A stretch of DNA of 64,000 bases, the filler included, from Reclinomonas americana ATCC 50394 (taxonomy: Eukaryota), in assembly GCA_048213135.1 (NCBI GenBank). It is 14 parts of 14 records of this genome, joined end to end, with 100 filler letters (N's around TTAATTAATTAA, not from the genome) between each part and the next. Parts side by side here need not be neighbours in the genome. Positions count along the whole stretch, not along the records: positions 43,685 to 45,877 come from AFZH01017681.1; positions 45,978 to 48,839 come from AFZH01017682.1; positions 48,940 to 50,361 come from AFZH01017683.1; positions 50,462 to 54,167 come from AFZH01017684.1; positions 54,268 to 56,783 come from AFZH01017685.1; positions 56,884 to 62,899 come from AFZH01017686.1; 8 more parts are not named here. One strand, given 5' to 3'. The translations under genes were made by a program, and so were the position numbers. Position 1 is the stretch's first letter. Each line of letters begins with the position of its first letter. Below are positions 43,701 through 59,356 of the stretch, in pieces. The notes under the pieces are model-generated. The model did not search any database and had not been told where the DNA came from. It worked only from the letters and a program-made list of their open reading frames with translations.

Positions 43701-46700
43701 CTTCCCCCTTCTCCCCCCTCCCCCTTCCCTTCCCCCTTGCAGACCGTCGACGCCGAAGGAGGCACCGCTGGTGGCAGCGGCGAGGCGGCGGGTGACGATG
43801 AAGACGACGACGACGACGACGATGGCATTCCGGGCAGGACAGGCGGCGATGATGCCGACTCGAGTGCCAGCGGCTCGCCGCGCGCATTCCGCTCGGCGCC
43901 CATGCCCGCCTTTTTCGGTTCGTACGATTTGATTTTCATCACCTACCCCAGTCGACGCTGAACAATGATGATTTTTTCTCAACAGGTCGTGGCGGGTTCC
44001 TTGGTCGTGGCCGGCCGGGCATGCGTCGCACGGCGCCACGCCGTCAGGTTCCGCCGCGCTTCTTTGGAGACTCTTTCGGCGCCGCTGTGGCCGCGGTGTC
44101 AGCTGTTGGTGGTGGCTCGCAAGACACCTCGGCGACCACCGCTACTTCGTCGTCGTCCTCTGACGACTCGAAGAAGGATCCGTATGTGGCCTTTACCACC
44201 GACGGTATCAGTCTGTACGCTGTCTCTGCGCGTACTGTGGGTGGTGCCTCTTCGTCGTCGTCGTCGTCGTCGTCCACCACGACGGCGGCGGCGGCGGCGG
44301 CGGCATCGACGGAGGGCGGCGCTTCCGGCAGCAAGAGCAAGAAGGCCAGTGCTACGGCGGCGGCGGCTTCGTCCAAGAAGGACGACTCCGGCAAGCCGGT
44401 GGTGACTGTGCAGGCATTCAACGTCGAAGAGAGTTTGCGCATGGTCAAGTCAGTGGACTTGTGTGGCCCGTCATTGAGTTGCGTGATCCTCACCCTCCCC
44501 CTTTCCGATGTTGACACTCACACCCGTGTGTGATGTGTAGAGCCGCGTCGTGGCTCGGTGCAAACGAGCAGCGGTGGCTACGTCAATCTCGGCAATCCGG
44601 CCGCTCTCAACTTTTCCGGACTCATCACCATGGAGCTGTGGCTGATGGTGTCGCAAAGTGTGCACAACATCAGCTCGGGATTCATTCTCAACCACGGCGC
44701 CATGGGCCCCAAGCGCCTGTCGCTGTACATTGACTACGGATCGCTCGCCGTTGTCAGCATGGACGGAGAGGCGTCGCAGACCACGGCCTATTGCGATCTG
44801 GAGGTCAGCAAGTGGCACCACATTGCCGGTTAGTTTTTTCTGGTTCTGTTTTCTGGTGTGTTTCTTCAGCCTCATATTCCTCACTCCTGCGTGGCAGCTG
44901 TGTACGACGGCCGCACGTGGTCCATTTTCCTGAATGGTGCCGTGGTCAGCTCGACGCCGTCGCACATTGGCGCCTTGATGCTGCCGAACGACAGTTGGTA
45001 CGTTGGCTCTGGTGAATTCGGGCAGAACCCGATCAATGCCCACATTGCCGAGGTGACTGCATGCCATTGTCCTCTCTCAACCTGTGGCATTCGCTCATTT
45101 GCTTTCTTTGTGTTGCGCAGCTGCGCATTTGGAGCTGCGCGCGGTACGCCATCTGCTGATCTCCTTTACTCCCTTCTCACTTGCCTCACTTTTGCTCTTT
45201 GACGCACAGCTCCTCGTGGGAGATCCGCAACTCCATGGATCAGCAGCTGAACGGCGACGAGGAGAACCTGGCCGGTTATTTCAAGCTCAACGAGTGCTCC
45301 GGTCTGACGGCGTGGAACTCGGCCAAGAACGCCGTTGCGCACGGCACGCTGGTCGGTGCAAAGTGGGCCGTGGATCAGGGCCCGATTGACGTCATGGCGC
45401 AAGCCGATGGTGAGTGGTTTTCTAATTGGTGCGCAATTCGCTATCTCTCTCTTAATCTCTCCATCTTCACAGCCGAGGAGGTCAAGCCGTGCCTGTTGAC
45501 CGACGATGCGGTCCGCAAGGCGGAGTTTGTGTGCAACGGTGACACGCTGGGCGTGTTCCTCAACCGCAGCGCTGTCAGCTCCATCTATCGAGGCAATCAG
45601 TCCAGCATCTTCCAAGTCTACAGCCTCACCTCGGGCAAGATGCTCAGCGAGACAGTCCTCACGCACGCTCATGTCGGTCAGCACATGTGCTTTGATCGCC
45701 TGAACAATCTCATCTGGACCGTGGACAAGGAGGTGTGTGCACACACAGAGAGGGAGAGAGAGAGAGATTAAAGGGAAAGAGTGAGTGAGTGAGCGTGCGA
45801 GAAAGAGAGAGAGAGAGATACGTTTATGTTTATCTTGTGAGTGGTTGTATCACGCTGAACACAATCGAATGGTTGCANNNNNNNNNNNNNNNNNNNNNNN
45901 NNNNNNNNNNNNNNNNNNNNNTTAATTAATTAANNNNNNNNNNNNNNNNNNNNNNNNNNNNNNNNNNNNNNNNNNNNGTTTTCTCGTCTTCTTTGTCGTT
46001 CTCTTGTCTTTGTTTTTTCCTCCTCCTCTTCTTCTCCTCTTCTTCTCCTCCCCTTCTCCTCTCGTTCTAATTTTTGTCTCGCTCTTCTCTCTTTCTCCTC
46101 TCTTTCTCATCCACCTCCCCTTCTCCTCTCTTTCCCCCCTCCTTCCCCTCTCCTTCCCCTCTCCTTCTCCTCTTCTTCTCCTCTCTTTCTCATCCATTCT
46201 CCTTCTCCCTCTCCTTCCCCCTCTCCTTCTCCCTCTCCCTCTCCCTCTCCCTCTCCCTCTCCCTCTCCTTCTCCCTCTCCTACTCCCTCTCCTTCACCCT
46301 CTCCTTTCTTCTTCTTCTCATCTCCTTCTCCTTCTCCTCTCCTTCTTCCTCCCCGTCTTCCTTCCCTTCTCCTCTCCCTCTCCTCCACCTCCCCGACTGT
46401 CGCTTGCCACAGGATACCGACGGCCTCGACTACGTGCCACGTGTCTTCCTGGAGGGTGGTGTCGAGGCAGGAGTGACGGTCGACCTGGAGACCGAGGCCT
46501 TCCTCGAGTCGGTCATCGAGCTGAGCACACCGACGGCGCAGGCGCTTATCAGCAAGCTCGATCGCCTGGTGCCGTCGGCCGCTGTCGGACCGCAGGCTCG
46601 CGCACATGAAATCAGTTGCGGACGACTGGCTTTGCCTTACTTCTTGCTTCTCCCTTCCGTTTATTTACGCCATTCTATGTCCATCGCTGGGCAGTCGCGC

Positions 46701-57400: not shown

Positions 57401-59356
57401 CTTTGCCTCCGGTGGTGGCAAGTGCCAGGCTGACTCGGAGTGCTCCAACAATGGCAGTTGCGGTGGTGCATGGTGCACACGGCGAGAACACAACGGAAGA
57501 TTGACCACTTGTGGCGTGTGTGTGTAGAGTGTGTGGACGGTGTCTGCGCTTGCGACGATGCGGCGGTGTTCGGATCTCTTTGCCAGGTTTCGTGTGTACA
57601 TGTATACTCCGGGTTGCAGGTAGCCGTCATCGCCTCACTGCCCTTGTTCTACTGCAGTGTCGACCGGCAGTATCCAAGGGTGGTATCTGCAACGCGGCGA
57701 AACCGTACATGGTGCACAATGTGTGCGTCAGTGCCGCCACGTGTGCACGCACGGCGGCTGCCGAGCAGCGCAACAAGTTGCTCGGTGCGCAGCTGGTGGG
57801 CGACTGGAGCAAGGAGATGTTGCGTTATGTGTGCCAGTCACTACCTTGTGTGCGATGCGCATTCCACTGATTTCCTTCCAGTTGGGCGAGCGTTCGCTCC
57901 AAGCGCATTGCCGCACCGGAAGCTGCTCGCGTTGCAGCCGCCGTGCATGTTGCCATGCACGACGCCATGCAAGCGATTCCTGGCGGCAAGGTGTGTCGTG
58001 CTGCTCGTTTCGCTCAAAGAAAAAGACAACTGATATTGGTCGATGCAGTTCGAAAAGTACAAGTTTTCAGCACCATCGCCAGTCGACGGCAAGATTTCGC
58101 GTGCCGCCGCAGGTGCCAGCGCCGCCGCCGTCGTCCTCGAGTACTTTTTCCCGGAGCGCAAGAGCACCATTGACGCTCTTCTCTCGTCCCACTTGAGCCG
58201 TCTGAAGGGTGGTGCCGGCGCGCAGGCGAGTTCTTTCTTGTCGTCGATGCCTGCAGCACGAATGTCTGCTCACGATGTACTCTTTCCATGCAGACGGCGG
58301 CGCAAGCTGTTGGTCGGTCTGTGGCCGGTGCTGTTCTTTCCGAACTCATCACCGACGGCTTCTTCACGCCGCCACCCGCGTATACGCCCAAATTGCAGCC
58401 GGGTGCGTACCAGTTGCTGCGCAGCGAGGATCCACTGTTGCGCCAAATCGGCACCCTCCGTCCGTGGGTGATGCGAGACGCCGGCGCCTTCGCCATCAAA
58501 CCTGACTCGCCGCTGTACTCGGACTGGCTGAAGCAGCGCATGCCGTTCGACAGCACCAATTTCCTGAAGACGGCTCTCTACGCCGACATGTTCAACGAGC
58601 TGGTCGAGTACGGCGCGCAGGGGTCGCTGAAGCGCTCGGCAGATCAGACGCAGAGCGCGCAGTTCTGGAGCTCCGATCCGGCTGCGGCGGCCGAGGCCCT
58701 CACCGTGCCCGGCATGGTGAATGTGCAAATGCAGCAGTTTTCGCAGGCCTACGCCTTGACACTGCAGGTGAGGACTCTCTCTCTCTCTCTCTCCCTCTCC
58801 TGCACCTGCGTCAGTACTCCGACTCACTCTCCGTCTTCGTCTTCTTCGTTGGCAGGAATCGGCGCGCCTGTTCGCGCTCGTGAACTTGGGTCTCGCCGAC
58901 GCCGCCATTATGGCGTGGAACATGAAGAGCAGCTTCGACCAGTGGCGACCGGAGACCGCCATCACGACTGCGCTCGACGACGGCAACCCAAACACCACAC
59001 GAGTGCCGACCTGGGTGCCGTTGTTGCGCACGCCGTCGTCCCAGTCGCTGCCGTCGGCGCACGCGACATTTGCCAGTGTGGCCACCACCATTCTGGCGTC
59101 GGTGTTCGACCAGCAGTCTCCGTGGCAGCTGCAGCTCGCCGACGACTCCACACGGCGCTGGAGCTCCCTGGAGGCCGCCGCTCAGGACTGCGCCTTGTCG
59201 CGCATCTACGGTGGCGTCGGGTGGCGAGTCGACGGCGACCTGGGTCTGGCGTCGGGCGATCTGCTCGGCAACTTCATCGTCAACACCGTGCTTCGACCGG
59301 TGACCCGCGAGCAGGAGCCACCGGCCGCCCCCACCAACAACACAACACACAAGTGA
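54419..59356 (+). CDS. Multidomain protein: acidic/Lys tandem repeats, SUEL-type lectin, EGF-like motif and vanadium-haloperoxidase/PAP2-like domain (5' end uncertain; spans one gap)
   Basis: SUEL-like CNDKQTC...WGGDPCP...KYLTVTWAC at about 56890-57145. EGF-like CSNNG...CVDGVCAC at about 57420-57590. Haloperoxidase-like PEAARVAAAVHVAMHDA, QTQSAQFW, ARLFALVNLGLADA, KSSFDQWRP, PSAH and SRIYGGV; TGA at 59354-59356. Linkage of the pre-gap repeat part is inferred. Confidence 0.7.
55051..56073 (+). repeat. Coding tandem repeat, nine full units of 102 or 114 nt (34/38 aa) plus a partial unit
   Basis: Unit PADVKTEIKKEVDQTGEVDYVDEDGKDKPAPPKQ(PNTK); frame preserved, with many synonymous differences between units. 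Confidence 0.95.

Follow-up and report, generated by a model that had tools for sequence, protein, structure and literature searches.

A GTTGCG donor class after non-G exon ends

In a 64,000-nucleotide (nt) stretch of the genome of Reclinomonas americana ATCC 50394 (GenBank assembly GCA_048213135.1), hereafter called the window, analysis of the sequence confirmed that GTTGCG(T), rather than the usual GTnnG(T), opens about a quarter of the introns checked, and that it does so solely where the preceding exon ends in a base other than G. GUUGCG(U) is a real second 5′ splice-site class of U2-type introns at non-G exon ends, at which, with a probability of roughly 0.5, U1 and U6 would pair out of register. 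The members identified lie mainly in a large SPRY-HECT ubiquitin-ligase gene, in a gene for a monofunctional FTHFS, and in a family of tandem coding modules.

Among 45 introns whose junctions were checked by homology, GTTGCG was found at 11 of the 15 with an exon end of A, C, or T and at none of the 30 with an exon end of G (Fisher p=1.3e-7; p=1.3e-6 when the three cases from an intron array in the HECT tail were counted once). The dependence on the base at -1, which a preliminary description of this DNA had claimed, thus holds, and the last exonic base is indeed A, C, or T at every coordinate named there. The remaining four donors after a non-G base were GTTTCG (one), GTGCGT (two), and GTGAGT (one), so that the converse rule is not absolute; with GTTTCG counted as a variant, the class accounts for 12 of the 45 donors checked, all of them among the 15 that follow a non-G base. 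Donors after G mostly carry G at +5, as had been described (27/30). The three G-ended donors lacking it (4645 and 2182 on the minus strand, 46829 on the plus strand: GTAAAA, GTTCAT, GTGACC) all follow AAG, which looks like compensation from the exon side.

The same pattern was seen at the level of sites. On both strands GTTGCG occurs 61 times compared to 44.4 +/- 6.1 in dinucleotide shuffles, none of 100 of which reached 61. A strong branch-plus-acceptor signal 50-110 nt downstream was present at 22 of these 61 sites versus 10.0% of all 7271 GT sites, and none of the 22, selected here with no gene model, had G at -1. Split by calls, 32 of the 61 sites were called donors (-1 G in 0/32, +7 T in 28/32) and 29 were not (-1 G in 5/29, +7 T in 5/29).

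With respect to the reading frame, hand counts placed none of the 15 phase-0 introns in the class (14 of the 15 follow a G), while it made up 12 of the 30 introns in phases 1 and 2 (hypergeometric p=0.003 against phase 0). Among the checked introns the class is thus restricted to phases 1 and 2, and hence to places at which the encoded amino acid dictates the last base of the exon. Module donors form an exception to this pattern, lying in phase 0 after CTT.

The introns and donors are as follows, with the exon-end base in lower case before a slash that marks the junction.

2442..2499, minus strand: intron, donor a/GTTGCGGG, phase 2, FTHFS; spliced alignment with P0002 and P0017
2191..2255, minus strand: intron, donor t/GTTGCGTT, phase 1, FTHFS; spliced alignment with P0002 and P0017
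4119..4173, minus strand: intron, donor t/GTTTCGTC (GTTTCG, class variant with T at +4), FTHFS; P0002 and P0017
41260..41325, plus strand: probable intron, donor t/GTTGCGTTGA; gene finder; ambiguous owing to an in-frame GT 9 nt upstream (41251)
42720..42784, plus strand: predicted intron, donor a/GTTTCGTA (class variant); donor-blind gene finder only
44478..44540, plus strand: predicted intron, donor a/GTTGCGTG; gene finder; one same-acceptor alternative; absent from the preliminary description
46615..46694, plus strand: intron, donor a/GTTGCGGA, phase 1; spliced alignment with P0152 and gene finder
46982..47046, plus strand: intron, donor t/GTTGCGTT, phase 2; spliced alignment with P0151 and P0152
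48310..48378, plus strand: intron, donor a/GTTGCGCC, phase 2; spliced alignment with P0152
48585..48648, plus strand: predicted intron, donor a/GTTGCGTT; gene finder; sole candidate on the best acceptor
49200..49266, plus strand: predicted intron, donor c/GTTGCGTT, precedes the SPRY exon; gene finder; two same-acceptor alternatives
50722..50778, plus strand: intron, donor a/GTTGCGTG, phase 1; P0125 and P0135 (2/2 homologues reaching the site)
52526..52599, plus strand: intron, donor c/GTTGCGTG, phase 2; 5/5 homologues; position common to seven metagenome loci
52752..52828, plus strand: intron, donor a/GTTGCGGC, phase 1; 5/5 homologues
53299..53370, plus strand: intron, donor t/GTTGCGTT, first of a seven-intron array; 4/5 homologues and exon chain
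53372..53444, plus strand: intron, donor t/GTTGCGTC, after a predicted 1-nt exon (T 53371); exon chain giving AHTCFFSLDLP
53628..53719, plus strand: intron, donor t/GTTGCGTT, after a predicted 1-nt exon (T 53627); exon chain
56388..56448, plus strand: probable intron, donor t/GTTGCGTG; gene finder; ambiguous with an in-frame GT at 56379, 9 nt upstream
57819..57881, plus strand: predicted intron, donor t/GTTGCGTT; gene finder; three same-acceptor alternatives
8738..32085, plus strand: 19 paralogous module donors GTT[G/A/T]CGTG, from an alignment of 19 copies, at 8738, 9895, 10971, 11993, 13045 (A), 16383, 17453, 18480, 19516 (A), 21426 (T), 22605, 23707, 24737, 25774, 27725, 28911, 30005, 31038 (A), and 32079

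The donor 10-mer at 41260 is identical to those at 48585 and 49200. GTTGAG was considered as an additional member of the class and rejected, as its module copies sit within the coding block KSVEGVLQ.

Placement of the junctions

Junctions were derived from the alignment of foreign homologues rather than from transcripts, using a protein-to-DNA spliced aligner written for this work, which accepts any GT..AG intron at a flat penalty and contains no donor model. For FTHFS, two homologues (P0002 and P0017) gave the same 18 introns, and a 19th was obtained from P0002 alone. For the HECT gene, five homologues were aligned, and an exhaustive search added the 5032-amino-acid homologue P0152; a second homologue, P0151, also supports 46982. 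In addition, we used a donor-blind gene finder, whose scoring covers coding potential, acceptor, branch site, and length and which requires of a donor only that it begin with GT. It placed 27 of 40 checked introns exactly, with six of its 13 misses inside the intron array of the HECT tail, and by our own reading it misplaced about eight of the roughly 35 introns that it called in two checked genes. At one site, for instance, the spliced alignment puts the donor at 46829 (g/GTGACC), where the gene finder had 46802. Nevertheless, GTTGCG starts 14 of its 110 predicted introns (44478, 46615, 46982, 48310, 48585, 49200, 52526, 52752, 53299, 57819, 2499, 2255, and two module donors), yet accounts for just 61 of 7271 GT sites.

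The GTTGCG donors listed in the preliminary description at 46615, 46982, 48310, 48585, 49200, 50722, 52526, 52752, 53299, 53372, 53628, and 57819 are all present and lie at intron starts, and those at 2499 and 2255 on the minus strand were each recovered with both FTHFS homologues. Altogether, homologue alignment supports 11 GTTGCG donors, while 48585, 49200, 57819, and the previously unlisted 44478 come from the gene finder. P0142 and the remaining parts of P0152 could not be aligned meaningfully with 40.5-46.4 kb or 48.3-51.6 kb, which is why 41260, 44478, 48585, and 49200 lack homology support.

Nature of the introns

All 12 checked members of the class have GT at the 5′ end and AG at the 3′ end. 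The branch motif of the window is CT[C/G]A[C/A/T], with CT.A in 37 of 40 checked introns and the branch A 11-37 nt before the 3′ end, and the acceptor is GCAG, with G at -4 in 30/40 and C at -3 in 35/40 introns, which makes for very strong 3′ signals. Class and other introns did not differ in acceptor score (Mann-Whitney p 0.26), branch score (p 0.33), or length (p 0.59; medians of 72 nt and 70 nt, respectively). Because length, branch site, and acceptor equal those of the other introns, the class consists of ordinary major-type GT-AG introns. It resembles U12-type 5′ splice sites in its rigid intronic motif of about seven bases that is independent of the exon end, but unlike U12-type introns it lacks the U12 donor and branch consensus, for which the general consensus sequences served as reference, and its branch site (CTSAY), acceptor, and length are those of ordinary introns.

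An all-against-all comparison of 21 class introns with blastn-short revealed just the first 8-11 bases in common, and they are therefore not copies of a mobile element. In the tandem modules, the preliminary description had placed the motif after the first exon of most copies; the alignment revealed the donor GTT[G15/A3/T1]CGTG in 19 copies, preceded by T (18) or A (1). Across the five module types no alignment of the intron bodies is possible, and within the donor +4 alone varies. Since the donor was kept although the intron bodies have diverged, the motif is maintained by selection, with +4 free.

Further evidence came from metagenome relatives of the HECT domain, of which 54 loci were collected, 27 of them containing introns and scoring 400 or more in spliced alignment. 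The intron at 52526 (P0122 T266, phase 2) has the same position and phase in seven metagenome loci of AT-rich relatives, where the donors are c/GTAAA, c/GTAAT, or similar. As its position is shared with distant loci of the GTAAA type, an old intron has gained its GTTGCG donor in this lineage. No GTTGCG donor was found in the metagenome HECT loci among donor starts at shared or window-matched positions, with 10 loci listed in full; these AT-rich relatives use GTAA-type donors and are therefore uninformative on how widely the class occurs. The loci with shared HECT intron positions include L012, L020, L025, L029, L030, and others, and the intron at 53182-53242 (P0122 A387, phase 2) is likewise common to five metagenome loci.

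Recognition of the class

The usual donor of the window is G/GUnnGU, in which G at -1, G at +5, and U at +6 are nearly fixed. GTTGCGT at +1..+7 parallels G/GTGCGT at -1..+6 position by position, so that the earlier wording of GTGCG(T) with one inserted T describes the data well. The positions correspond as follows (class members against ordinary donors after G).

Class -1: A5 C1 G0 T6; ordinary -2: A12 C9 G2 T7
Class +1: G in 12/12; ordinary -1: G in 30/30
Class +3: T in 12/12; ordinary +2: T in 30/30
Class +4: G in 11/12; ordinary +3: G in 17/30
Class +6: G in 12/12; ordinary +5: G in 27/30
Class +7: T in 8/12; ordinary +6: T in 21/30

Since -1 of the class corresponds to the G-poor -2 of ordinary donors, the lack of G at this position needs no special rule. 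Pairs were counted against the textbook 5′ end of U1. With this sequence, which may not be that of the host, the average number of pairs is 3.8 for class donors and 6.6 for other donors in the canonical register, and 5.4 and 4.5, respectively, once the register is shifted by +1; pairing improved upon the shift for 8 of 9 class donors versus 1 of 31 others.

From these patterns we infer which RNA pairs with the motif and how. At commitment, U1 would bind one nucleotide out of register, with its exon-end-pairing C on the first G of the intron. This G would stand in for the one that normally ends the exon, and the +5/+6 G and U of ordinary donors would lie at +6/+7. In catalysis, U6 would then pair with G+6 and U+7 with one base looped out, and the GU dinucleotide itself would still set cleavage. 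Two geometries would fit: the pairing may be shifted by +1, leaving a single mismatch at U+2, or a U at +2/+3 may bulge out; we prefer the shift because the bulge register would favour G at -1, which was never seen in the 32 called donors though the sequence permits +2/+3 bulge pairing.

Several points weigh against recognition out of register. Duplex energies computed with ViennaRNA and the textbook U1 end were so weak that they did not discriminate between the registers. The C at +5 never varies (12/12 checked introns, 19/19 modules), which a plain shift does not predict because the equivalent +4 is C in just 10 of 30 donors after G. Furthermore, H/GUGCGU should pair with standard U1 at least as well as H/GUUGCGU, yet it was found two times versus 11. 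All counts come from one 64-kb window dominated by the HECT gene, the source of 12 of the 15 confidently called non-module cases of the GTTGCG class. As regards the junctions themselves, between 3 and 17 frame-compatible GT..AG alternatives exist per site (seven donors checked), so that calling the donors required by the frame, as had been done, was too strong. The GTTGCG choice used the best acceptor in six of these seven cases, but only at 48585 was it without a same-acceptor rival. Of the earlier suggestion of a bulged or shifted U1/U6 register or a variant small nuclear RNA (snRNA), the register part agrees with composition and textbook-U1 pair counts, which favour a shift or bulge, while the invariant +5 C is left unexplained by a mere shift.

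A more far-reaching version seems doubtful to us, namely that a rigid GUUGCGU class, with about a quarter of the introns, is read by a second U1-type snRNA or by obligatory out-of-register U1/U6 pairing, which would uncouple cleavage from the U1 helix, and that the same splicing system processes arrays of single-nucleotide exons.

Alternative explanations

As +5 C is invariant and H/GUGCGU in the minority, both a variant U1 and a protein or catalytic-step preference were kept under consideration. The former would be a dedicated variant of the U1-type snRNA whose 5′ end is perfectly complementary to GUUGCGU and which reads the class independently of the exon, much as U11 reads the rigid U12-type donor. 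It would account for seven near-invariant positions (+1, +2, +3, +5, and +6 in 12/12; +4 in 11/12; +7 in 8/12) where ordinary donors are degenerate at +3/+4, for a +5 C that goes beyond a shift of the ordinary pattern, and for a class that makes no use of an exon-end G. We regard it as unlikely, since the 3′ signals are those of ordinary introns, four of the 19 module copies have drifted from G to another base (A or T) at +4 with the donor retained, and the near-perfect one-base-shift equivalence would be a coincidence. Searches of the window with Rfam yielded no snRNA gene at the gathering score (0 matches) and no snRNA at E<=1, where just two weak microRNA-like matches and one weak small nucleolar RNA-like match were obtained.

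Alternatively, U1 and U6 may pair in the normal register, with the preference for non-G exon ends arising from a protein factor (U1C or LUC7-like), from U5-exon contacts, or from catalytic-step geometry. Pair counts do not explain the 11 H/GUUGCGU against two H/GUGCGU donors, and the link between exon-end G and +5 G is, according to PMC8283771, not solely a matter of U1 pairing. However, in this register the class forms just 3.8 of nine possible pairs with the textbook U1, which may not be the host's, and lacks +5 G, and the one-base-shift equivalence at six positions would be left without explanation, which makes normal-register recognition quite improbable.

Very unlikely, in our view, is a historical leftover, in which one inserted or copied element starting with GTTGCG was spread without any special recognition. 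Extreme intron richness and a cluster of seven introns within 15 coding bases would suit recent intron gain, but the sharing of the first 8-11 bases only, the position and phase of 52526 in seven distant loci having GTAAA or GTAAT, and the conservation of the motif across module types with diverged intron bodies speak against it, and a strict dependence on -1 is not predicted. In this respect, the introns also differ from introners and transposon-derived introns, as they show no similarity beyond the first 8-11 nt and one member lies at an ancestral position. Misplaced junctions or a chance abundance of GTTGCG appear highly improbable, since, although in-frame alternative GTs exist at most frame-supported sites, eleven junctions were fixed by homologue alignment, and GTTGCG is enriched both among sites with a strong branch-plus-acceptor signal (22/61 versus 10.0%) and among donor-blind predictions (14/110 versus 61/7271).

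Relation to known splice sites

Shifted and +2/+3-bulged U1 registers have been established experimentally for rare human 5′ splice sites (Tan et al. 2016, PMC4856993). According to Table 3 of that paper, the bulge +2/+3 register applies to 54-68 of 201,541 human 5′ splice sites, and non-canonical registers altogether account for about 2% in the figures given there. As in the human shifted-register sites of Roca & Krainer 2009, as cited in PMC4856993, the class has an extra U after GU and its U1-pairing bases one position further into the intron, the cut stays at GU, and a poor canonical match improves by a one-base shift. Unlike these sites, which are described there as rare, the class makes up 12 of the 45 donors checked (12 of the 15 that follow non-G), and it is a rigid GUUGCGU with invariant +5 C that is strictly tied to a non-G end. 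The bulge +2/+3 sites (Roca et al. 2012, as cited in PMC4856993) likewise resemble a consensus donor plus one U able to bulge, but they would favour G at -1, as opposed to 0/32 here. Similar to the compensation between exon-end G and +5 G treated in PMC8283771, the intron side varies with the exon-end G. In other cases a donor that lacks -1 G makes up for it by matching GUAAGU more closely, with G at +5, whereas this class makes up for it with a motif that has no +5 G.

A literature search returned no full-text paper linking GTTGCG to the splice-site consensus of introns, and the matches listed for GUUGCG, and for GTTGCG in connection with introns, were unrelated primers or aptamers. The class of mechanism is known from human exceptions, but within the reach of our searches we found no description of a lineage with a rigid major class and a clean exon-end rule. 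Studies of how cleavage is positioned relative to U1 and U6 pairing have relied on a few rare human sites, and this organism would offer a natural test system. Of the introns of this genome, about a quarter would be overlooked or wrongly placed by gene finders trained on donors with +5 G.

Apparent one-base exons in the HECT tail

Between LPVAHTC and LPNWSSYE, the plus strand at 53299-53887 contains seven well-formed consecutive introns of 72-106 nt, which fall within 15 coding bases of the HECT tail. The predicted exons between them measure 1, 1, 1, 1, 4, and 4 nt (T 53371, C 53445, T 53552, T 53627, CTCG 53720-53723, and CTCG 53810-53813). The seven-intron chain alone yields AHTC-FFSLDLP-NWSSYE, which agrees with the homologues in both motif and spacing (AHTCFFS[IL][DE]LPxYSSYE), while the two-intron alternative of the aligner leads to AHTC-Y-LCADLP. 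The HECT gene thus appears to have four one-base exons in a row. To our knowledge, such a run would be without precedent. If real, it would defeat every standard annotation pipeline. Single one-base exons have been described as isolated rarities (PMC4674806, PMC12940212). Seven metagenome loci have a phase-2 intron in the Cys codon of AHTC, 2 nt off the start of the array (53299).

Other features of the window

The window is a eukaryotic nuclear scaffold with a G+C content of about 55%, in which contigs of 2-7 kb are connected by 13 joins consisting of N44-TTAATTAATTAA-N44 linkers (the first at 8033-8132); at least at 48840-48939 and 50362-50461, the gene order continues correctly over the join. 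Introns are extremely frequent in this genome. The SPRY-HECT gene is very large and occupies at least 46413-54072 on the plus strand; the closest proteins to its HECT domain are at most 72% identical, one of them from Reticulomyxa. Other genes placed were FGE-sulfatase-like, sulphur-transport-like, and SUEL-lectin-containing. A 305-amino-acid exon used as query in the first homologue search gave no match. Another open frame, of 464 codons at 54943-56337 on the plus strand, harbors about ten repeats of KPADVKTEIKKEVDQTGEVDYVDEDGKDKPAPPKQP, and its Pfam matches were weak and driven only by the repeats.

The tandem modules at 8133-33000 on the plus strand number about 19, each of about 1.05 kb, and fall into five old types, which are ordered into a higher-order repeat about 6.3 kb long. 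Their conserved blocks include NKKRMLVKAFGLMAP, ACDECGIP, and PKSVEGVLQ, and three open reading frames tried gave no Pfam match. The FTHFS gene lies on the minus strand at about 4766-512, and its closest proteins in large collections are 60-64% identical. With 18-19 introns per about 640 codons it displays an unusually high intron density; CT/GA microsatellites abound in two long introns of 644 and 595 nt.

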